From an uncultured virus (IMG/VR IMGVR_UViG_3300030388_001635) (lineage: Duplodnaviria; Heunggongvirae; Uroviricota; Caudoviricetes; Crassvirales), in IMG/VR virus record IMGVR_UViG_3300030388_001635: DNA of 20,000 bases. One strand, 5' to 3'. Each line of letters begins with the position of its first letter. Within the stretch, counting starts at the first letter, position 1. Below the pieces are notes generated by a model. That model saw only the letters and a list, made by a program, of their open reading frames with translations. It searched no databases and had not been told where the DNA came from. Of the stretch, positions 5,524 to 20,000 are shown piece after piece. A program made the translations under genes and the position numbers.

Positions 5524-6270
5524 TTAGTTTTCTAATCGTTTTTCTAAAAGTTTTAAAGCTTCTATACCCTCGTCTGATTGAAGATATGATGCCATTATAA
5601 ATAATGGGTCTTCACCAAATGGTATTGTAAGCATTCTTTTTTTATTAGAAGTAGTATTAAAATGTACATCCCTTTTATTGTTTTTAAATATCAACAATTT
5701 ATTATCTACAAACAATTGAACTTTTGACTGCAATATTAACATTGGGTCATTAGTCATGTTTAATAAATCTGCAGGGTATTTTCTTGCAAACACAAGCATA
5801 TCTCTTTTTAATTCAGATGTTGAGATTTTACTTATATCTCCAAACAATACTCTACCAATCATTTCTAATTGAGATAAAGACATTTGTCTTGCTAAAATTA
5901 ATGCATCCACTTCTGAATTCATTATATCCACATCTTCTTGCGCATCTTTTGCTTGATTTATTACTTCAAACTGCACTCCGAAACCCGGATGCATATTTAA
6001 AAATAATTGTAACACTTGATTTGTTCTTGGTACTGCTAACATCCCATCTTCAAAAATAATAGGGTCTAAAACCACATTCCCATCTTGTTCATCTATAAAT
6101 GGAGATTTTTGATTTTTAGCATAACGAAGAGGTCTATTAATACCTTGTTCTTCATCAAAATGCATTAAGGGAAATCTTTTACTATGTTGGGAAGCCAACA
6201 TGTATGATAAGGGAGTTTTATCTCCCGCTAGTCTGTAGACTTGGTCTACGAATTTGTTGCTTTTATTCAT
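5524..6270 (-). CDS. Phage protein immediately downstream of MCP (positional equivalent of crAss-like gene 75), 248 aa, function unknown
   Basis: Full ORF with ATG preceded by AATCAA. Size and position after MCP match crAss-like capsid modules; homology not verified. Confidence 0.7.
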   Translation of the reverse strand: MNKSNKFVDQVYRLAGDKTPLSYMLASQHSKRFPLMHFDEEQGINRPLRYAKNQKSPFIDEQDGNVVLDPIIFEDGMLAVPRTNQVLQLFLNMHPGFGVQFEVINQAKDAQEDVDIMNSEVDALILARQMSLSQLEMIGRVLFGDISKISTSELKRDMLVFARKYPADLLNMTNDPMLILQSKVQLFVDNKLLIFKNNKRDVHFNTTSNKKRMLTIPFGEDPLFIMASYLQSDEGIEALKLLEKRLEN

Positions 6271-8978: not shown

Positions 8979-11414
8979 TTATCTAGGGTCAAATTCTGCC
9001 ATATCAAAACCATCTAAGCTATCTTCATTAGACTCAAATGATTGAGGTGGTAAATTATTTTTCTTTTGATTTATAAGATTTGATTGTTGAGTATTTTGTT
9101 GGCTTATTCTTGCTGACTTAGATGTTTCTCTTTCTTTTTCTCTAGTTTGCATTAATTCTGCATCTACATTTCTAAGTTGCATGTTCATTTCAAATTCTTT
9201 ATCCATTAAACCTGCTTTTAATTCAGCTTCAACTTTTAATTTTTCAATTTCAAAAGCAACATCAGCTTGACGATATTGCATTTTCGCTTGAGCTTCCATT
9301 TGAATTTTTTGTTGAGAAATTTGACCTGCCATTTGTTGAGACTTTAAATTTTGAGCTGCAGCCATAGCTTGCTTCATAGCTTCTTTTTTATCGTCTTCTT
9401 CTTGCTTTCGTCTTCTTTTTAATTTTAATAATTGATTAGCTAATTTTAGATTTTTTAATTGTCTAATATCAATAGCATCTTCAAGGTTTATATCTCCTTT
9501 AGATAAAGCCATATTAATATTTTGCTCTAACAATTGTCTTTGTTCTTCATCAGGTGCTACTTCAATAAATATTCCAAAGTCATATATATATAAGTCTTGT
9601 ATATCATTTAAAATAGAAACATTAAACTTGCCTATTTGATTTATAAACTCATCTTTGAAATCCGAATACTCTAAAACATCTGCAACCCTATAAGATAAAG
9701 CTTCTGCTAAAGTTCTATATACATATAAACTTGCATCTAAAATATGTCTAGTTGCTGTGTTAGAATTTAAAGCTGCTAATTTCTGTACACCAACTAAAGC
9801 GTTAGGGTCAGGAGTAGAGCCATCTCTAGCTTCATTTAAACCTGTAACAGTTCTAATCATATCCATATAATGATTATAATTAGTAATTAACATTTGTGTT
9901 TTACTTGCACCACTACTAGATGTTAATTGTTGTATAGGAACTCTTGCTTGATTAAACTCTCCGTCTTGAGTATAACTTCTACCAACAACACTACCTGTTT
10001 GAAAATATAAACGTAAAGCATCTTCAGGATTATATGCTGCTCCCGTACCTAAATCTACTTCATTCAAACCATCAGCATCAATAAAGACTCCATCAGGAAC
10101 AACTTTAGCTATTACTTGTTGGAGTTTTAAATGTGTAATTTGAATTAAATCTGCAAATGGTATCATTCTTCTAGTTAAAGATTCTATAGAACCTTTATAC
10201 ATTCTTGGAGCTACAGCTACATAATTAGGTATAGCATGTTGTGAAGCGGATTTGGGACGTACCATGTTTTCTGATAACTTCCATTTTAAGATAAAATTAG
10301 TACCCATTACCATTACACCTTCATACCATACATCAATACGTTTGCTAACTTTTTCAAAATTACCTTCTTCCATTACATCTTCAGGAGGATTAAATTGGTC
10401 ATCTTTTTCAATTACCTTACTTCCTCCACCATCATATTTTTTCTTTTTATATACAAATTCTTTAGTAGTTTTATAATTAAAATACATAAGTGTTGCTGTA
10501 TCTCTATAAAAAATACTATTTTGAAAATATTGTGCAGTATTAAAATAATCATACCAACTTTGACTGTATTTACTTATTTCTTCTAAATCTTCTACAGTTA
10601 ATGTTGGCTGTATTTTTATCAATTCTGTTATTGGAACTGTTTTAATTTCGCCCCAATAAAAACAATCTTTAAAATGCTTATCTTCTGTATAACTATAAAC
10701 TACGTTTGCAGGGTCTACATATGAAATCTCAACACCTGAACCTAATAAAAATTCATGTTTTGCAACTCCAATACCTAAAACAGTAATATCATAATCAATT
10801 TGTTTTCTAATATCTTCGTAATGATTATCTTGAAACAAAGTATTAATAGCCTCTTCTTCAGCTATTTCAATAGCAGGCTTATAATTTAAATTCATATATA
10901 ATGACAACTCTTCATCTGTAGTTGGCAAACTATCTGCATTAACTATAAACGGGTCTACATTAAAATCTTTTTGTATATCTTGTAATATATCTTTTGCAGC
11001 CATTTGACCTTCCACTACATCTTGATATTTGCTTCTTTTTTGTTGAGACATTGCATCTTGCGCATACGCCTGTACTTTAAATAATCTGTCAGACATTCCA
11101 TTAACAACTATGTCTACAAACTTTGGTATAATTGGAACAATAGACCAATCTAAGTTTAGATAACTTAAATCTCCATCAATTGCTAATTCGTTTTTATATT
11201 TTCCTATTGACTGTTCACCTCTTGCATAAAGTCTTAATCGGTTGAACATTTGCCATTGACTATAATATCTACAACCAACTCCGTCTTTTCTAAACCACTC
11301 GTATTGAATAGCCTGTCCTATTTGTAACCCAAATGTTTCTGTTTCTTTTTCGGCATCTGTAACAAATTGACTAGGGAATCCTGCGGAAGTGATATCTATA
11401 TTAATTTCTTTCAT
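8979..11414 (-). CDS. Portal protein (crAss-like), 811 aa
   Basis: Directly follows TerL (TAA-ATG). Motifs RLYARGEQS..KYK, PIIPKFVDIVVNG and TGLNEARDGS.PD, plus a long Q/E/K-rich C-terminal coiled coil consistent with a portal barrel. Confidence 0.88.
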   Translation of the reverse strand: MKEINIDITSAGFPSQFVTDAEKETETFGLQIGQAIQYEWFRKDGVGCRYYSQWQMFNRLRLYARGEQSIGKYKNELAIDGDLSYLNLDWSIVPIIPKFVDIVVNGMSDRLFKVQAYAQDAMSQQKRSKYQDVVEGQMAAKDILQDIQKDFNVDPFIVNADSLPTTDEELSLYMNLNYKPAIEIAEEEAINTLFQDNHYEDIRKQIDYDITVLGIGVAKHEFLLGSGVEISYVDPANVVYSYTEDKHFKDCFYWGEIKTVPITELIKIQPTLTVEDLEEISKYSQSWYDYFNTAQYFQNSIFYRDTATLMYFNYKTTKEFVYKKKKYDGGGSKVIEKDDQFNPPEDVMEEGNFEKVSKRIDVWYEGVMVMGTNFILKWKLSENMVRPKSASQHAIPNYVAVAPRMYKGSIESLTRRMIPFADLIQITHLKLQQVIAKVVPDGVFIDADGLNEVDLGTGAAYNPEDALRLYFQTGSVVGRSYTQDGEFNQARVPIQQLTSSSGASKTQMLITNYNHYMDMIRTVTGLNEARDGSTPDPNALVGVQKLAALNSNTATRHILDASLYVYRTLAEALSYRVADVLEYSDFKDEFINQIGKFNVSILNDIQDLYIYDFGIFIEVAPDEEQRQLLEQNINMALSKGDINLEDAIDIRQLKNLKLANQLLKLKRRRKQEEDDKKEAMKQAMAAAQNLKSQQMAGQISQQKIQMEAQAKMQYRQADVAFEIEKLKVEAELKAGLMDKEFEMNMQLRNVDAELMQTREKERETSKSARISQQNTQQSNLINQKKNNLPPQSFESNEDSLDGFDMAEFDPR

Positions 11415-13658
11415 TTACAATATTTCGCTAATAGTTCCTGTGTTCGTGTATCTTGCAAAGTTAATGCTTATTTTTGACTCTTTTTTGATTGGTAAATATA
11501 AGTGTTTTTGATTTGCCATTATAGCTAACCCTGAACTAATCGTAGCATCAAACTTTGTTCTGTTAGATATATCAAATTTTGCCCAATCTTCTAATGTTCT
11601 TGTAAAGTACATAGAGCCCATATCATCTAGCTCTCTAAAGGACTCATCTAAATCCAATCCTACATGTTTTTCTATGTATGATTCTACAGCTGATGCATGT
11701 GATTGTTTTACATCTTCACTAGAGTTTGGAATACCTCCTAGTTCTCTTTCAGTTTTTGATAATTTATTAAATACTTTATCAGGTCTATTCATACTAAACC
11801 CTCTATATCCTCTATTTTTAAAGTGATACAATAATCTTGGCTTATTGTTTTCACACAATATAGGCATGCCATAAAACACACAAGCCATCAAAACTTCTTC
11901 AAAAAATATTTCAGCTGTTTGTGGTCTAGCTACATATTCTAAAAAAAATTCATTACTAGGTGCTTCGTCCATATTAAATTTAGTCATTCCATGCAAAGCT
12001 CCGTTAGAACCACCTCCACCAACAACTCCGGATATATCATATGAATCACAACCAAAAGAACCTATGTGTTCATTAGCAGGATATTTAATTCCATTTTTTA
12101 AATAAAATCTATTTTGCATTTCTTTTTTAGGAGTCCATCCTACATTAAATCTTCCTTTCTTGTCAGGTCTAAATATTACTTCTGTATCTTTAATACCGTC
12201 TTTCCAATAAAAACTTCCTCTTGTTGTATGATGTTCTATTATTAAAGAATCATTATAATCAATCTGTTGATATATCTTAGTTAAATTAAACAAAGACTGT
12301 TTACTTTCATCTCTAAATGCATGTGATTCTGTTCTAGGAAATTGTCTGTAGTATTCATTAAGAGCATCAGCATCATTTTTTAAAGAATCAACTTCGTTCT
12401 GCCAATACTCTATAGCACCGACTCTAATCTTCTGATTATCAATGCCTAACACAGGAGTTGAAGGAGAATGTAAAACAGGCATACCGTATCTGTCAATAAA
12501 CCCTTCCATATTCCATTCCATAGGAATAAACAAATTATATAAACCACTTTTAGTTTGACCGTTGGCATTTCTTTTTGTAGGGTCAGAGTCTTCAAATAAA
12601 TTTTTAAAATTATCTCCACCTTTACTTAATGCATTAGATGTTGAACCCATCATACATTTGCCAATTATTTTACTACCTAATCTTAAACAAGTTTTTGTAA
12701 CTCTCCAATTATTTAAAATATTATTAGGCTTTAACCATTTTCCACTTTCATCGTGAACTAATAATAAAAGTTTTTCACCATCATAGGAATTATCATCAGT
12801 ATTTTTCCAATCTATTGTAGTATCTAATCCATCAAGCTCTTCGCTTTCAACTAGATACATATTTTTTTTTGTAATTTTAGATGCAGGAATTCTAAATGCT
12901 AATTCAGTTTTTGGCTTATCCATTCCATCTTGAATAGGTTTAAAAAAGAAAGGTAAATTATTCCCAATAGGAACAACTTTATCTGTAAACATTTTTTTTG
13001 CATCAGAACCTGTTTTAGATAAAATACCTACTCTAGCATCCTTAGCTAATGTTCCTGTATTTATACATTCAGATGAACCCATAAAAGAAAACCCTGAACG
13101 TCTTATTTTTAAATAACATAATCCAAAACTTCTTTTATCAGCTTTGCATGCTTCCCAATAAATAAAAAACAACCTGTTTGCCTCTCTATAATCAGGAAAA
13201 CCTATATCTATTTTAGTCCATTGTAAATACACATAATGAGAACCTGTAATATATGTTGGTTTACCTTTATTATAAAACCAAAAACCTTCTTCTCTAAAAT
13301 CAAATTCCTTTTCAATATAATCAATCCATTGATTTTTAAAAACTGAGTTTTGATTGTTCCATTGAAATATAGAAGGAATTCTTTTTAAAACTTTAGGATA
13401 TTCATGTCTTTCCCAATACTGTTCGCTTGTCTTTTCCTTTCTTTTATTTATAAATTCAGGCTGTTTAGGAAGTGCAATATCTACACCATTCATTTGAATA
13501 ATCTTACCTATAGTTCCATTAGTTGATATAACAACGATTCCATATTTTTCGTCAAATCCATACTCCCAACTCTTTCTTTTGTTTTTATTAGTAAGAACAG
13601 ATTTTGGAATTACATCATATAATTCTGTATATAGTTTACTTAGACCTTCTTTCTGCAA
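11415..13658 (-). CDS. terL: Terminase large subunit, 747 aa (start uncertain: TTG at 13658)
   Basis: Walker A-like LKIRRSGFS, Walker B LLLLVHDESGKW, coupling motif MMGSTSN, RNase H-like nuclease motifs FGCDSYD, CENNK and FDATISSGLA. Size typical of crAss-like TerL. First in-frame ATG only at 13493. Confidence 0.92.
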   Translation of the reverse strand: MQKEGLSKLYTELYDVIPKSVLTNKNKRKSWEYGFDEKYGIVVISTNGTIGKIIQMNGVDIALPKQPEFINKRKEKTSEQYWERHEYPKVLKRIPSIFQWNNQNSVFKNQWIDYIEKEFDFREEGFWFYNKGKPTYITGSHYVYLQWTKIDIGFPDYREANRLFFIYWEACKADKRSFGLCYLKIRRSGFSFMGSSECINTGTLAKDARVGILSKTGSDAKKMFTDKVVPIGNNLPFFFKPIQDGMDKPKTELAFRIPASKITKKNMYLVESEELDGLDTTIDWKNTDDNSYDGEKLLLLVHDESGKWLKPNNILNNWRVTKTCLRLGSKIIGKCMMGSTSNALSKGGDNFKNLFEDSDPTKRNANGQTKSGLYNLFIPMEWNMEGFIDRYGMPVLHSPSTPVLGIDNQKIRVGAIEYWQNEVDSLKNDADALNEYYRQFPRTESHAFRDESKQSLFNLTKIYQQIDYNDSLIIEHHTTRGSFYWKDGIKDTEVIFRPDKKGRFNVGWTPKKEMQNRFYLKNGIKYPANEHIGSFGCDSYDISGVVGGGGSNGALHGMTKFNMDEAPSNEFFLEYVARPQTAEIFFEEVLMACVFYGMPILCENNKPRLLYHFKNRGYRGFSMNRPDKVFNKLSKTERELGGIPNSSEDVKQSHASAVESYIEKHVGLDLDESFRELDDMGSMYFTRTLEDWAKFDISNRTKFDATISSGLAIMANQKHLYLPIKKESKISINFARYTNTGTISEIL
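11456..11463 (-). promoter_or_regulatory. Candidate internal -7 promoter TAACTTTG in the terL 3' end, upstream of portal
   Basis: Plus CAAAGTTA, identical to the 8942-8949 box, 41 nt before the portal ATG, overlapping the codons for INFA. Confidence 0.5.
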
Positions 13659-13914
13659 AACCTTGATTGGTGTTAGTTTTAGTTAGACCTTTACTCTCAA
13701 TATTTATAACTTCTTGTTCTTGTTCTATTCTAGCTAATATTTCAAACGCATCAAATATAGCAAGTTTTTTTGTTGCAGCTGCATTTTTTAATCTATCAGC
13801 TGACACATCATCTTCAGTTCCTGTAACAATTTTTTCTTTTGCAACATTAATTAATTCTTCTACAGCTTTTTTTGCTGCATCGATAATTTTTAATTTTACT
13901 TCGTTGCTATTCAT
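13636..13914 (-). CDS. Putative terminase small subunit, 92 aa
   Basis: Small helical protein immediately upstream of and overlapping terL; ATGA overlap with the GroES-like gene. Function inferred from position only. Confidence 0.55.
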   Translation of the reverse strand: MNSNEVKLKIIDAAKKAVEELINVAKEKIVTGTEDDVSADRLKNAAATKKLAIFDAFEILARIEQEQEVINIESKGLTKTNTNQGFAERRSK

Positions 13915-14474
13915 AATTTAACTGTTATGAATTGTGACATAATACGATACATTAAAACTCCATCAACAGTAAATTCATATTCACTTTCGGGTTTAAAAAC
14001 AACTTCATCTCCGGCTTTTATTCCATGATAAATTAATTCTTTATTTGGATATCTAACAACACCAACTAATGGTTCGTATTTAACTATCTTATCTATATAA
14101 TATTCTTTACTCAATATAGGTTCTACAAAACAATATTTATCATGAGCATGCCATTCATTATTAGTCTTGTATAAAAAAAATTGGTCGTTTTCTATAAAAA
14201 ATAAATTGTCTTTAAAATAACTTTTACCACTTTTTTCAACGCCTTTCATGTCATAATATATTTTAAAAACATTATGATGAACTAAAAGAGTATCTCCTAT
14301 TTTTATAGGACCACAATAATTTAAAGGTAAATGTTTTACAACAGCATAACGGTTTGAAAATTTGTGGTCTTCCTGTGAAGTACTTACAATTAGTTCTACA
14401 TCGCCATGTGTTCTTGTGTTATCGTATCGTTTTCCTTTTAAAGGTTCTACGATAAAGCTGAAAGGTGATTGCAT
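13911..14474 (-). CDS. GroES/Cpn10-like co-chaperonin with two tandem domains, 187 aa
   Basis: Two copies of the GroES pattern: FIVEP...YAVV...IKIGDTLLV and CFVEP...VGVV...GIKAGDEVVFKPESEYEFTVDGVLMYRIMSQFI (compare typical GroES VKVGD.V.F..Y...E..IDGEE.LI....DI). Confidence 0.7.
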   Translation of the reverse strand: MQSPFSFIVEPLKGKRYDNTRTHGDVELIVSTSQEDHKFSNRYAVVKHLPLNYCGPIKIGDTLLVHHNVFKIYYDMKGVEKSGKSYFKDNLFFIENDQFFLYKTNNEWHAHDKYCFVEPILSKEYYIDKIVKYEPLVGVVRYPNKELIYHGIKAGDEVVFKPESEYEFTVDGVLMYRIMSQFITVKL

Positions 14475-14483
14475 TTGATTTCA

Positions 14484-14711
14484 TTAATTAAAGTTTATAT
14501 TAAATTCTATAGAAACAGGCATTGTTTCATTAAATTGTTTCCATAGTTTGATTTCGTTTTTTTGAATAACATAGATATTGTAACAAGAAATATCTGAGTC
14601 ATATTTAATTAAATGAATAGAATAGCTTCCACCTAAAACTTCTTGTCCTACTAAGTAATGCATAGCACCTGACTTATAATCAGGACCAACTGAAATTTTT
14701 CTAATATCCAT
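14484..14711 (-). CDS. Hypothetical phage protein, 75 aa (beta-rich)
   Basis: Fills the gap between the fibre and GroES-like genes on the coding strand, ATG start, short spacers; begins MDIRKISVGPDYKSGAMHY. Confidence 0.75.
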   Translation of the reverse strand: MDIRKISVGPDYKSGAMHYLVGQEVLGGSYSIHLIKYDSDISCYNIYVIQKNEIKLWKQFNETMPVSIEFNINFN

Positions 14712-14728
14712 TATATTAAATTTATAGA

Positions 14729-17563
14729 TTAGCTTAAGTTTTCTATTCTATATTGTATTTTTATTTTTACTGTACCACCACCTGTAGCTGTATTCGGTCC
14801 ACCTAAGTCTAACGCTTCATTAACTCTACATTGTCCATTATTATTATTGTCTGTATCAACTTTTGAGAGGTTTACATAAACATCAGCAGAACTATTTGCA
14901 ATCGTACTGTTAATAGCAGCAAAGGGTCTGTATATAGTTGCAGACGAACCTGAATAGCTAATGAATAAATCTGATGGTAAATTAAAAGCAGGAGATACAA
15001 AGTCTAAATAAAACAAAGCACTATCAACTACAAGAACTTGATTTGCACCCGGTGCAGCTACTAACTCTACCGGACTTGAACTTAAAGTTTTCATTGCTGC
15101 ATTAGAAATACTAATTGTTTTTGTTAAAAGGTCACTTGAACTTGCTTGAGCTTGCCATTCTAAACCTGAGTTTGATGCATTTTTAGCTAGTACCTGATTG
15201 GCTGTACCTACACTATTTGCTTCATCATTGATTTGGTCAACAAAAATATTCAACCATTTTTTAGTTGTTGTTCCTAAATTAACAGCTGAGTCTGTAACAG
15301 GAATAATTGCTCCTGTTGAATTTAACTGACCATTTGTAGTAATGTTAGTAGGTAAAGCAATTGTTAATGCTTGACCACTACCTGAAGTTACTATTTCATT
15401 AGTTGTACCACTTATAGTGAATGATTGACTAGATAAATTAACCGAAGGAGTTCCTGTATTAGAATCTCCTAAAAACTCTAATGAACCACTAACATAATTA
15501 GGAATATTTAATACTCCTGCAGATAATGTTGAGACTCCTGATGAACCTGTAGTTGTTAAACTTGTAAAATTTATAGCAGGAAAATCTAATAAATTACCTT
15601 GACCTGATATATATTCAGCTGCAGTACCTGCAAATGAAAACTCTAAAGAAGCAGCTACAGTAGGAGTTGTAACTGAAACATCTAATGCATCACCCGCTGT
15701 TGTTGCCGCTACACTTGTAACTGTTCCACTCCCCGATGTTGCATTCACCCACTCTAAACCGGTGTTAGCTGCATTTTTAGCCAATACTTGAGCCGCTGTT
15801 CCTAATCCGTCATTAGCATCTGCAATATCTTTTGTCCATGTAGTTTTCCATCTATTTCCGTCACCACCTAAATCTATCAGTTGGTCAGTAACAGGAATTA
15901 CATCACCCGTACTACTTAGTGTACCCGGTATTGTTAAAGCAGTAGGAATAGAAAATGTAACAGTACCACTTGCTTGTGTTGTTGTAATTTGGCTTGTAGT
16001 TCCTGCTAAAGTAACTACTTCACCATTAGCGATTGTTTGAGCTGTTGTACCATCAGTAATGTCCCATGAGGTCATTGAGCCTCCACCTGCTTGTGCTTGC
16101 CATTCTAATGCATTTGATGCATTTTTAGCTAGTACTTGATTTGCAGTACCTGAACTATTTGCACCATCCGCTATGTCTGTTGAAAATAATTTAGCCCATT
16201 TGTTACCCGTAGTACCTATGTTATATGTATCATTAGCTGTAGGCACTAATGCACCCCCACTATTGAATTGACCCGGAGTTGTTATGTTTGTAGGAAACGC
16301 AAATGTAACTTCTTGATTTAAAACAGTAGCTGTAAGTTGGTTTGTAGTTCCTGTAAATTTTAATTGTTCTGTTGGTAAATCTATAGCTCCTGTTGTAGTA
16401 CCGTCAGATATAGTTAATGTTTTATCGTTAGTGTTAGCTTCTTGCCTCCATTCTAAACCGGTGTTACCTACGTTCTTAGCTAAAATTTGATTTGCAACTC
16501 CAAAATTCCCTGTAGCATCAGCAATTTCTTTAGTGAAAAAGTTTAGCCACCTGTTTACTGAACTACCTAAGTTTGCAGATATATTAGTTGTAGGAATTAT
16601 TGCTCCTAATGAATTTAACTGACCTCTTGTAGTTATGTTTAGAGGTAAACGAATTGCAACTGATTGACCTGCAGGATTTGAAGTATCTATCTCATTGGAT
16701 GTTCCAACAACAGATAATGATTGTGTAGATAAGTCAACAGTAAAACTTCCTGAATTACTTGTTAGTACATTTAATGAATTACCTATTCCAACTGATGACC
16801 ACTCTAATGCATTTGCTGCACTTTTTCTTAAAAATTGATTTGCAGTACCTGAACTATTTGCATTATCTGCTATATCTGTTGAAAATAATTTAGCCCATTT
16901 CAATGCTGTTGTTCCTATATTAAAAGTTGTAGCTGTAGGAATTATTGGTCCTCCACTATTAAGTTGACCCGGAGTTGTTATGTTTGTTGGGAAAGCTATC
17001 TGCATTGTTTGTGCACCATCACCTGTTGTAGTGATTTGATTAGCTGTTCCTAAAATTCTTAAAGATTGTGTTGGTAAATTTACTGATGTAGTACTTGTAT
17101 CATATGAACCACCTAAATCATCAACAGTTGCTATAGCTGTATCTACATAAGTTTTAATAGCTAAGGTGCTAGCAATATTTGTGTTACTAGCACCTGTTAA
17201 AGCTATACTTGTTATAAATGATGTCCCTGATATTGCTCCATTGAAAACAGTTGTTCCATTAGTTGTGAAACTTGTTGGAACAGTTAATGTTATTACAGAG
17301 CCAACATCAGCAGATAAACTATCTATATTAGCAATTCCATCTATATATAAATTTCTCCATTGTAATGTTGGACTACCAATATCATATGTATCATCAATTG
17401 TAGGAATTAGCGAACCTCCTATATTACCAAATAAATAAACACTTAAAGCATCTACAGTAACTGTTTTAGTTGCTAAGGATGAATTGTAATCTGTTAATAT
17501 TAAATAATCGTCAGCTACCGGTGCTATATTTGGGTAACTTGTAGTATCGCTAATTTTTGCCAT
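14729..17563 (-). CDS. Repeat-containing tail fibre/spike-like structural protein, 944 aa
   Basis: T/S/G/N-rich, five ~116-117-aa repeats each ending GxAxQxLxK...LEW, short N-terminal anchor-like region and a ~135-aa beta-rich C-terminal domain. Confidence 0.75.
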   Translation of the reverse strand: MAKISDTTSYPNIAPVADDYLILTDYNSSLATKTVTVDALSVYLFGNIGGSLIPTIDDTYDIGSPTLQWRNLYIDGIANIDSLSADVGSVITLTVPTSFTTNGTTVFNGAISGTSFITSIALTGASNTNIASTLAIKTYVDTAIATVDDLGGSYDTSTTSVNLPTQSLRILGTANQITTTGDGAQTMQIAFPTNITTPGQLNSGGPIIPTATTFNIGTTALKWAKLFSTDIADNANSSGTANQFLRKSAANALEWSSVGIGNSLNVLTSNSGSFTVDLSTQSLSVVGTSNEIDTSNPAGQSVAIRLPLNITTRGQLNSLGAIIPTTNISANLGSSVNRWLNFFTKEIADATGNFGVANQILAKNVGNTGLEWRQEANTNDKTLTISDGTTTGAIDLPTEQLKFTGTTNQLTATVLNQEVTFAFPTNITTPGQFNSGGALVPTANDTYNIGTTGNKWAKLFSTDIADGANSSGTANQVLAKNASNALEWQAQAGGGSMTSWDITDGTTAQTIANGEVVTLAGTTSQITTTQASGTVTFSIPTALTIPGTLSSTGDVIPVTDQLIDLGGDGNRWKTTWTKDIADANDGLGTAAQVLAKNAANTGLEWVNATSGSGTVTSVAATTAGDALDVSVTTPTVAASLEFSFAGTAAEYISGQGNLLDFPAINFTSLTTTGSSGVSTLSAGVLNIPNYVSGSLEFLGDSNTGTPSVNLSSQSFTISGTTNEIVTSGSGQALTIALPTNITTNGQLNSTGAIIPVTDSAVNLGTTTKKWLNIFVDQINDEANSVGTANQVLAKNASNSGLEWQAQASSSDLLTKTISISNAAMKTLSSSPVELVAAPGANQVLVVDSALFYLDFVSPAFNLPSDLFISYSGSSATIYRPFAAINSTIANSSADVYVNLSKVDTDNNNNGQCRVNEALDLGGPNTATGGGTVKIKIQYRIENLS
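15155..17095 (-). repeat. Five intragenic ~350-nt repeat units in the 944-aa fibre gene
   Basis: Terminal Trp codons of the LEW motif at 16799, 16448, 16100, 15749 and 15155 (spacings 351, 348, 351, 594 nt). 16835-16900 and 16136-16201 are identical at 62 of 66 nt. Confidence 0.9.
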
Positions 17564-17902: not shown

Positions 17903-18388
17903 CTAACAGCTAGTCAAAGCTGAAGTCCATGAAGACCCGTTCCAACGTCTTGCGGATATGCCATTAGAATACCAACCACCACTAGCGTTTAAAGTACCTG
18001 CGGAGTTAGCGTAAAGATTTGTTTGAGACATAAAATTAGCGAAAGTTCCCGAAGTATATACTGTTGTATTAAATCCTTCTTGTTCACATACAGAACTAGC
18101 ACTTGCACCTCTACCACCGTCATATTTAACATTTATAGCTACTATTGATGAAGCATCTTTATCATATTCATAAAATGAATCAACTGTTACCGGTGTTGTG
18201 TTAGGGGGGAATGATGGACTTGATGTATTAATAGCGGGATAACTTTGTCCTGAACCAAATGAATTACCACCTGCGACTAAATCTCTTATTGATATAGCTC
18301 CTGTTATATTTCCTGACCCCCATGTACCATAAGCACATTCTCTAGCCATATTTTGAAAATCTAAAGCTCCTGAAGCAGGTATTGCCAT
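17903..18388 (-). CDS. Putative tail-fibre tip adhesin / fibre-associated protein, 161 aa
   Basis: Coupled (TAATG) to the S74 fibre. N-terminal MAIPASGAL...DSFYEYD module of the kind seen downstream of S74 fibres; G/S- and aromatic-rich C-terminal domain. Confidence 0.6.
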   Translation of the reverse strand: MAIPASGALDFQNMARECAYGTWGSGNITGAISIRDLVAGGNSFGSGQSYPAINTSSPSFPPNTTPVTVDSFYEYDKDASSIVAINVKYDGGRGASASSVCEQEGFNTTVYTSGTFANFMSQTNLYANSAGTLNASGGWYSNGISARRWNGSSWTSALTSC

Positions 18389-20000
18389 TATTTATTTTTT
18401 AATAAATCAACCTCAGCTTTAAGCTCTTTAATTGACTCAATTAATAAAGGTACTAATTTAGCATAATCTACTGTTAAATATTCTACACCATCTGCTTCTT
18501 CATTATAAGATATAGGTGCTATTTCTACAACTTCAGGCATTATTTTTTGAATTTCCTGAGCATTAACACCAACTTGTCTTTCGTAATTCTCATAACCTAA
18601 TTCTGCAGCTTTCTCATTTTGCTCGTAATAATAACCACCAATCTGACAAACTTTATCTAAGGCATTTGGAATAGCTCCTTTAAAATCTTTTAATCTTTCA
18701 TCAGAATAATAAGCTATTATATTACCTGTACATCTTATGGTATTACTTGCTGCAGCAGACGTTCCTACTGAAAGACCATGTCCACTTGCTACATAAAAAT
18801 GTGCACCGTCAGCAGAAATTGCGCCTTCCCCTATAGTTAGAGTACCATCACCGGCAAATCCTACAATTTTTGTACCAACATCTTCTTGACCACTATTTAA
18901 TTCGAAAAAATCACCTGAACTATCTAAAGCCATTTCATATAACCCACTAAATACAAGAGAATTACCTGATGAATTAGTTGATAAACCGGAACTACTGTCT
19001 AAACTACTAGAGCCACTCCATAGAGCTATTCTATTGTTTGAACCTGAACCTGTTACAGTTCCTGTGTTTGTTGTATAACCTGCTCCGTTAGTAAGTTGAT
19101 TGTTATTAGTTATATTATTTGCATTAGTTGCTCCTGTGTAACCTAAGTTAGCTAATGTCAATGTTCTAGTAGTAAAAGCAGTTATAACACCCTGTGTTAA
19201 AGCTACAGTAGATAGAACTGCTGCACCTGCACTAATACCAATATTAGTTGATGTTCCTATAGTAGTGTTTCCTGAACTAGTAACGTAACCTGCTCCGTTT
19301 GATAACTGATTATTGTTAGTAATAGTACAATTTAATGTAACAGTACCTGATGTACCACCACCACTCATATTTGTCCCTGCAGTAACGCCTGTAATATCAC
19401 CTACACTTGTAGTATAACCTGCTCCATTTGTAAGTTGGTTGTTGTTTGATATACCATTAGTTATTGTAACTGTATTGGCAGAACGAGATGTAGTTATATT
19501 TGTTCCTCCTGCAATATCAACTGTTTCAGCATTATCAACCACCGCAGTTCCACCACTATCAGCTGTAATTTTCCAACTTGACATTGAACCTCCTGAAGAT
19601 GTAACGTATCCTGCACCATTTGAAAGTTGGTTGTTATTTGATATAACCGGCACAGTACAGTTTAATGTAACCGTACCACTTGTTCCTCCGCCTGACATGC
19701 CTGTTCCTGCTGTTACTCCTGTAATGTCTCCTACGTTAGTTGTATATCCTGAATTATTAGTCCATTGTGATATGTTACCTCCTTTATTAGTAAAAGTTTG
19801 AGTATTACTAGCTGTAGTAGTACCTGTATTGGTTGTATAGCCCGCACCATTTGTTATTTGGACATTGTTAATTGCAAAACTAACGTTAGATAGTCCGCTT
19901 CTGTTTAATGTTAATGTTCCACTTGTTACGTTACCACCTGTTACAAAATTATTAGAACCTTCTGAAGTAACATAACCTGCACCATTTGTAAGTTGATTAT
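18388..20000 (-). CDS. Tail fibre protein with C-terminal Peptidase_S74 intramolecular chaperone; 5' end beyond the window (>537 aa)
   Basis: The frame of the 436-aa ORF stays open to 20000 (NQLTNGAGYVTSEGSNNFVTGG...), so the ATG at 19698 is internal. C-terminus has SDERLK, GVNAQE and VDYAKLVPLLIESIKELKAEV, the S74 signature (Ser codon 18703-18705). Confidence 0.9.
   Translation of the reverse strand, partial: NQLTNGAGYVTSEGSNNFVTGGNVTSGTLTLNRSGLSNVSFAINNVQITNGAGYTTNTGTTTASNTQTFTNKGGNISQWTNNSGYTTNVGDITGVTAGTGMSGGGTSGTVTLNCTVPVISNNNQLSNGAGYVTSSGGSMSSWKITADSGGTAVVDNAETVDIAGGTNITTSRSANTVTITNGISNNNQLTNGAGYTTSVGDITGVTAGTNMSGGGTSGTVTLNCTITNNNQLSNGAGYVTSSGNTTIGTSTNIGISAGAAVLSTVALTQGVITAFTTRTLTLANLGYTGATNANNITNNNQLTNGAGYTTNTGTVTGSGSNNRIALWSGSSSLDSSSGLSTNSSGNSLVFSGLYEMALDSSGDFFELNSGQEDVGTKIVGFAGDGTLTIGEGAISADGAHFYVASGHGLSVGTSAAASNTIRCTGNIIAYYSDERLKDFKGAIPNALDKVCQIGGYYYEQNEKAAELGYENYERQVGVNAQEIQKIMPEVVEIAPISYNEEADGVEYLTVDYAKLVPLLIESIKELKAEVDLLKNK
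19065..20000 (-). repeat. Interspersed NNNQL[TS]NGAGY[TV]T repeats (7 copies incl. variants) and two VGDITGVTAGTxMSGGGTSGTVTLNCT copies
   Basis: Read in translation near 19070-19110, 19280-19320, 19408-19450, 19600-19640, 19740-19775 (variant NISQWTNNSGYTT), 19830-19870 (NNVQITNGAGYTT) and 19965-20000. 27-aa copies at 19324-19404 and 19654-19734. Confidence 0.88.

Follow-up and report, generated by a model that had tools for sequence, protein, structure and literature searches.

In the uncultured marine tailed phage recorded in IMG/VR as IMGVR_UViG_3300030388_001635, the gene for the large terminase subunit (TerL) has no ATG before codon 56 and overlaps the gene upstream of it in the +1 frame. 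We analysed this junction in a stretch of 20,000 nucleotides (nt) of that genome (the window) and across homologous loci. Judged by sequence comparison, TerL is very probably a separate protein of 747 amino acids (aa) that is initiated at a weak TTG codon in the +1 overlap, where selection maintains it. A TTG start in a terminase overlap is an ordinary arrangement, and long phase-1 overlaps are described as common and as needing no special selection (PMC3887535). The result would settle where TerL begins in a large clade of marine phages. It would also illustrate clearly, from nature, how a weak start codon can be held in place by selection within another gene and released once a substitute appears.

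An earlier reading of the window alone (the original prediction) had proposed either a weak TTG start or a low-frequency +1 shift at a tandem AGA-AGG pair, giving a fusion of the small (TerS) and large subunits. Its description of the sequence holds throughout on re-reading. The first in-frame ATG is codon 56 at 13493, the TTG at 13658 is the sole ATG, GTG or TTG in the TerL frame ahead of it, and the frame is open from 13682 (Table 1). The upstream gene, here called the small gene, ends on the minus strand in GGT TTT GCA GAA AGA AGG TCT AAG TAA, with its stop codon 20 nt beyond the UUG. Two DNA runs from different studies span the junction with no other letters and no gaps (contigs of X10, 13075-14275, and of X13, 13264-13768). 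Because the spanning contigs are identical and hundreds of homologs share the junction, an assembly error was rejected.

The 55 codons ahead of Met56 had been described as protein-like, and alignment and modelling indicate that they are real protein, since they align with homologs and are modelled at high confidence. In the AlphaFold model of TerL residues 1-440, the predicted local distance difference test (pLDDT) score is 95-97 over residues 11-60 and falls below 50 only at 1-5 and 272-274; residues 11-55 fold with the domain. Foldseek matched this model best to the T4 gp17 ATPase (E 3e-8) and also to the P74-26 and HK97 proteins, and no sequence match for TerL was found in the PDB.

We compared the junction across 506 loci, comprising the window and 505 others obtained from protein-based scans, a codon-neutral pattern scan (among the matches listed) and two scans aimed at TTC. 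Thirteen had no small-gene match and one had no TerL; the remaining 492 gave 328 distinct junctions. Those from scans neutral as to the Phe codon (278 of the 328) are called unbiased below, and four junctions with insertions or frame errors were dropped before codons were counted. Within the available sequence, TerL lies downstream of the small gene in 492 of the 493 loci that have a small gene, the window among them. Most junctions follow one of two arrangements. In the first, the ATG of TerL sits at the small-gene stop, as TAATG in 121 of 144 junctions and as ATGA in 16; in the second, the genes overlap in +1 and a TTG is made by TTT-G. FastTree, run on 284 junctions plus four outgroups with the tail and the TerL N-terminus excluded, grouped the +1 junctions as a single clade (support 91; locus L487 falls just outside, 87) that is sister to the ATG clade (94). 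A small number of junctions inside the +1 clade have reverted to ATG, in frame +2 or 0. Homologs with an ordinary ATG in varying frames were, for the original prediction, the mark of a simple TTG start, and these reversions, together with a sister clade of similar size that uses plain ATG coupling, speak against its Arg-pair shift. Two further variants were seen. In L081 and L169 the small gene is separated from an ATG-started TerL by an insert of some 300-390 nt that apparently contains a small open reading frame (ORF), and the genes need not touch. In the clade of L040-L044, L053, L068 and L074 the small-gene stop is shifted 9 nt downstream (the protein ends ...ISNR) and the TTG is kept.

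Selection on the TTG was evident in the codon that supplies it. In the unbiased +1 junctions (n = 134) the Phe86 codon is TTT in 130, TTC in three and TGG in one, versus 110 TTT and 29 TTC for the same codon in the ATG clade (+2/ATG, n = 139). A first set of 242 junctions had given TTT:TTC ratios of 117:1 in +1 versus 96:27 (Fisher p = 5.5e-8, with kinship ignored). Other Phe codons in the +1 loci are 22% TTC (1011:291), and the invariant Phe54, likewise in a TTT-G context, has a ratio of 79:20. On the tree, Phe86 changed three times in 125 tips, compared with 14/93 and 9/90 for the other two Phe codons and 11/111 for the ATG clade; Poisson tests gave p = 1e-4 and 2e-3. Third-position changes numbered 15 at Ala87 and six at Lys92, after the TTG, and 30 at Gly85, before it, a pattern that fits dual coding from the TTG onwards. 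The position of the stop varies while the TTG stays, with the Phe codon at -21 in 105 junctions, -24 in three, -27 in one and -30 in nine. A TTG start would also give TerL an N-terminus of usual length: 30 residues precede a conserved Trp in 91 of the 130 TTG-started proteins, and 26-27 do so in 130 of 144 proteins of the ATG clade. The junction thus has what was sought for a non-AUG start in a phase +1 overlap as regards the codon itself, namely a standard alternative codon at the expected N-terminus and under selection.

The fate of junctions that lost the TTG bears on the same question. The original prediction had asked whether the +1 overlap persists where the TTG is lost; it does in 47 TTC junctions, and 45 of these have another ATG, GTG or TTG within -70 to +16 of the stop (ATG in 32). 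Among junctions that keep the TTG, another start occurs in that interval in 37 of 130 (ATG in 10). The replacements vary in kind and place (ATG at -59, -53, -50, -38 or +4; TTG at -38; GTG at -14), and in sister sequences the substitute often stands alongside a retained TTT (L522, L325, L227). Counted by eye on the tree, about 16 lineages lost the TTG and 14 of them have a substitute (binomial p = 1.5e-6 if independent; some neighbours may represent one event). Overall, the TTG is kept or replaced in all but two of 178 +1 junctions. Both the selection on this codon and the substitutes that accompany its loss support the weak-start branch of the original prediction.

The sequence upstream of the TTG is consistent with initiation there in some respects. 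The 15 nt upstream hold 7.7 A in the +1 clade versus 4.2 in the ATG clade, and local folding is -3.3 versus -6.45 kcal/mol. Before the TTG, A occurs at 97% at -6 and 85% at -13, with G at -3; in Flavobacterium johnsoniae, adenines at -3, -6, -12 and -13 are reported to promote initiation (PMC6847099). The AATCAA motif had been put forward as a signal that also precedes other starts of the window. It does lie 4 nt before the TTG and occurs 36 times on the minus strand, but at 6270, 8920 and 14474 it directly abuts the ATG, so its register here is unlike that at the other starts, and it is placed as in the window in only 7 of 130 +1/TTG junctions and is not a conserved signal.

Several observations weigh against a selected TTG start. 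An unrelated two-fold site, Asp55, is as slow as Phe86 (3/93), and a strict test on independent pairs, which had four pairs on well-supported branches, was non-significant (median p = 0.5). Two TTC lineages, L116 and L431, have no standard start until +43; both carry a CTG in the TerL frame within the overlap, which is a candidate start and which only 7 of 130 TTG junctions have. The upstream comparison sets one clade against one clade. With a start-context matrix built from 343 ATG starts in these loci, the TTG scores poorly (median -0.9; -1.9 in the window), with ATG starts at 2.6 and the TTG of Phe54, which is not a start, at +0.46; as it scores below this control, context does not single out the TTG. 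The RNA contigs of X19 and X20 do not reach across the TTG. Finally, near fixation of TTT and replacement starts would also be predicted by a +1 frameshift at UUU-G, if shifting were the sole route to TerL.

In such a shift, tRNA-Phe would slip from UUU to UUG and join the small and large proteins, as the main or a minor product. Comparison alone cannot separate it from a TTG start because both predict TTT fixation, and the shift accounts equally for the need of a replacement start once TTT is lost. Probable in-frame fusions occur in cultured relatives, and prfB shifting in Flavobacteriales is reported to proceed in some cases without a Shine-Dalgarno (SD) sequence (PMC10798248). The surroundings of the codon argue the other way: the A-site GCA is a common Ala codon at which no pause is expected, the preceding Gly codon varies freely, as counted above, and the 60 nt that follow downstream hold no strong structure (-4.1 to -4.6 kcal/mol). 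Slippage would remove Ala87-Glu88, which is invariant in 63 of 63 homologs and matched by Pro/Ala-Glu in the natural fusions, and none of the 492 close loci has the two genes fused in frame 0. Re-pairing on UUG requires a G:G wobble mismatch, which also counts against it. More generally, of the marks of a programmed shift, the only constrained position is the TTT, which is the candidate start codon; no slow A-site codon was seen, with AGA the commonest Arg codon of the window and the stop context variable; and the downstream ORF is not start-less. We regard a shift at the Phe codon as quite improbable. The same holds for the broader idea that some ribosomes in the +1 clade shift, most plausibly at UUU-G, and produce a recoded copy of the in-frame fusion of Elemovirus, Callevirus and Panino; if this slim chance were realised, one phage lineage would hold coupled, recoded and fused terminases.

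A start elsewhere, at ATG 13493 or at a near-cognate ATT or ATA, would make the TTG a by-product of the conserved Phe-Ala codons. The matrix favours ATG 13493 (1.8 versus -1.9 for the TTG), the GFAE tail is conserved at the protein level in distant homologs, and about 20 residues at the start of TerL have no equivalent in the fused-type proteins. On the other side stand the conservation and confident modelling of TerL residues 11-55, the presence of that segment in TerL proteins of the ATG clade, and the codon counts, as a by-product would permit about 20% TTC, which was not seen. This explanation, too, appears very unlikely.

Least likely of all, and hardly credible, is an occasional +1 shift, whether at AGA-AGG or at the Lys-stop codons, that would yield a fusion of ~830 aa at low frequency. 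The Arg pair is present before the stop as the original prediction described, AGG is uncommon in the 13 genes of the window (8 of 159 Arg codons), and AGG_AGG and AGA_AGA are reported to shift in Escherichia coli when over-expressed, with shifting that drops greatly at low mRNA levels (PMC5009743). AGA is not rare here, however, being the major Arg codon (129 of 159). The pair occurs in only 46 of 133 unbiased +1 junctions, and its codons change like ordinary sites (30 and 32 synonymous changes on the tree), so that the synonymous suppression sought by the original prediction was not found. As for the Lys-stop variant, AAA-TAR ends 96 of 118 +1 junctions, but the window has AAG TAA, nine junctions end CGT TAA with the TTG kept, and the low variation of Lys92 is explained by dual coding. 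Neither site gives a reason for TTT fixation. As a conserved mechanism, the AGA-AGG shift is largely refuted by these comparisons. A shifty stop AAA-TAA was rejected (absent from the window and lost in nine junctions), as was transcriptional slippage (no homopolymer of at least six A or T near the junction).

Under the preferred reading, in which TerL is initiated at the TTG, the history may be outlined as follows. Relatives outside the +1 clade couple the two genes by TAATG or ATGA, and the +1 clade would have adopted a TTG already offered by the conserved Phe-Ala codons, after which TTT became almost fixed; decay of the TTG would mainly follow the appearance of another start nearby. With UUG and a G at -3, yet an A-rich and unfolded upstream stretch, the TerL start is presumably weak, and TerL would therefore probably be produced at a lower level than the small protein. 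Ribosomes could initiate afresh at the TTG, or those completing the small gene could reinitiate there; unfolding and scanning models are both described in reviews, with strong distance dependence (PMC12548453, PMC10666635).

The original prediction named the upstream gene TerS. The gene does adjoin TerL and is conserved, but the name was a positional guess, and the 92-aa product has no match in Pfam or PHROG. Searches of the Atlas, Foldseek and VIA likewise gave no named family, an absence that excludes nothing; structure searches with Foldseek returned generic hairpins only, among the matches listed. The AlphaFold2 model has helices at residues 3-26 and 39-74 (mean pLDDT 84) and a flexible tail ending in GFAE; most homologs are ~90-110 aa. 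TerS proteins are described as having a helical-hairpin oligomerisation core, a TerL-binding tail, a helix-turn-helix (HTH) at the N-terminus in all cases and protomers of ~15-21 kDa (PMC9611059). The modelled hairpin fits such a core, although the fold is generic and so weak evidence, and the conserved place directly upstream of TerL fits as well. The model contains no N-terminal HTH, as the two long helices begin at residue 3, and 92 aa do not match the usual TerS size. The protein may work like a minimal TerS, and its conserved GFAE tail may be a TerL-binding element. One 163-aa protein (P0001) has two tandem matches to the small-protein profile, which could reflect either duplication or an artefact of assembly.

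Cultured relatives point to a link between the two proteins. In Elemovirus elemoB, Callevirus phi38:1 and Maribacter phage Panino, a GroES-like gene is followed by a TerL of 876-879 aa and then by the portal gene, and the small gene is absent. The 155-aa extension of these TerL proteins aligns with small-protein profiles over 81-88 columns (hhalign probability 70% and 76%, E 4e-5 and 2e-5), and the alignment ends at GFAE versus G[YF][PA]E, just ahead of the TerL part. The score of 33 fell to 10.8 when the profile was reversed, the best of 100 block shuffles scored 28, and non-overlapping windows taken from the fused proteins gave 12.7 or less. All 38 of the fused-type loci examined have an open frame. 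The 92-aa protein is thus probably homologous to the extension, as a natural fusion would leave it, and such a fusion is likelier than a recoded one in the +1 clade. That an HTH-less hairpin partner joined to TerL acts as TerS we consider about evenly balanced. The fusion part of the original prediction therefore keeps some ground, in that these probable in-frame fusions back the viability of a fused protein; recoding at the Arg pair in the window is unsupported.

Terminases of 876-885 aa were seen at L123:2036-4666, L124:1306-3942, L126:1324-3963 and L128-L163, with an apparent small-protein homolog at about residues 65-153 of the N-terminal 155 and a further 60-aa helical segment before it; two fused-type genes (L157:2495, L158:1268) apparently also start with TTG. 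Among the close relatives there were no in-frame fusions in the 492 loci. A search for longer small-gene proteins scored 8000 candidates and gave 43 proteins, nine of them with TerL sequence; these nine are single-member, single-contig proteins of at most 678 aa with differing join points, two in reversed order, and are most simply taken as assembly errors, even if GFAE stays in frame in P0163 and P0158. Internal duplication in the extension was not detected (hhalign probability 1.7%; hidden Markov models gave faint hints only), nor was a stand-alone form of it, as 23 short matches look like cut fragments and the Atlas held no usable match. In the part consulted of a structural treatment of the terminases of these families (PMC9855967) no mention of a fusion was found, and a literature search of titles and the beginnings of abstracts, with few subscription journals covered, returned nothing on recoded or fused terminases in these phages. 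Should the 92-aa family prove to be the terminase partner in these flavobacterial phages, a conserved hypothetical gene would gain a name, and elemo, phi38:1 and Panino would offer single-chain small-large terminases in cultured, testable phages. A single chain would be at odds with the unequal numbers that are usual, a TerS ring with few TerL copies. This side result, the small protein and its probable fusion, matters more than the start codon.

In the window, the packaging and head genes of a marine tailed phage form a module that lies entirely on the minus strand, with structural genes after the portal gene (Table 1), and this DNA was found in marine runs from several studies. Homologous TerL proteins occur in 87 phage records, from Flavobacterium, Cellulophaga, Tenacibaculum and Maribacter phages (32-46% identity) and one uncultured genome (75.6%); because the cultured phages with a homologous TerL infect flavobacteria, the host is presumably a member of the Flavobacteriia. 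A GroES-like gene adjoins the terminase genes here and in elemoB, Panino, phi13:2 and phi38:1, and not in Gundel_1. Tail-fibre-like ORFs with repeated peptide units lie at 18388-19998, with NNNQLTNGAGY-like units, and at 14729-17563. No Rfam match was found in 11000-15000 of the window.

Table 1. Features of the TerL junction and its neighbourhood in the window
Feature	Position	Strand	Remarks
Dual-coding overlap	13636..13658	minus	23 nt; TerL in +1 frame
TTG, TerL start codon (very probable)	13656..13658	minus	made by Phe86-Ala87 codons (TTT GCA) of small gene
AGA-AGG Arg pair	13645..13650	minus	proposed shift site; not conserved
AATCAA	13663..13668	minus	4 nt before TTG; within A-rich, weakly folded stretch; not a conserved motif
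TAA	13683..13685	minus	shuts TerL frame upstream; frame open from 13682
First in-frame ATG (Met56)	13491..13493	minus	internal codon (codon 56); not a conserved ATG in homologs
75-aa gene		minus	5' of GroES-like gene; packaging/head module
GroES-like gene	13911..14474	minus	phrog_13932, E 2.9e-23; ATGA-coupled to 92-aa gene
Small gene	13636..13914	minus	92 aa; predicted two-helix hairpin, conserved GFAE tail; candidate TerS-like partner
TerL gene	11415..13658	minus	747 aa counted from TTG; phrog_6681, E 2.5e-178, residues 35-744
Portal protein gene	8979..11414	minus	directly 3' of TerL; phrog_6547, E 1e-137

Among the closest known systems is Podoviridae sp. ctfjg026 (MW202828), the uncultured genome mentioned above, which shares the gene order and the TTG junction and whose TerL start in GenBank is already the TTG; its small gene is annotated as hypothetical, and its Arg codons, unlike those of the window, are AGA CGC. 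In lambda nu1/A (NC_001416) the large subunit likewise has a non-ATG start (GTG) inside the small-subunit gene, in +1 and with a 26-nt overlap. The junction studied here differs in its TTG and 23 nt, in an upstream protein that is a 92-aa hairpin versus the 181-aa Nu1, and in a host group that probably lacks SD-led initiation. T4 16/17 (NC_000866), whose gp17 ATPase is the best structural match, also has a +1 overlap, of 17 nt, but starts with ATG. The Pachyviridae phages phi13:2 and Gundel_1 have a gene of 99 or 103 aa directly before a homologous TerL, and the small-protein profile, run against a small local set, matches these genes at E 6.5e-6 and 1.8e-4; they differ in ATGA or TAATG coupling and an ATG start. 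ElemoB, phi38:1 and Panino share the order of GroES-like gene, TerL and portal, and an extension that aligns end to end and finishes G[FY][AP]E, and depart from the window in having a single frame in place of a separate small gene. Programmed +1 frameshifts, such as prfB and the tandem AGG/AGA codons of E. coli, resemble the junction in a downstream frame that is +1 and has no ATG; here, unlike there, a conserved re-pairing site, slow A-site codon and stimulator are lacking, and a standard start codon is conserved.

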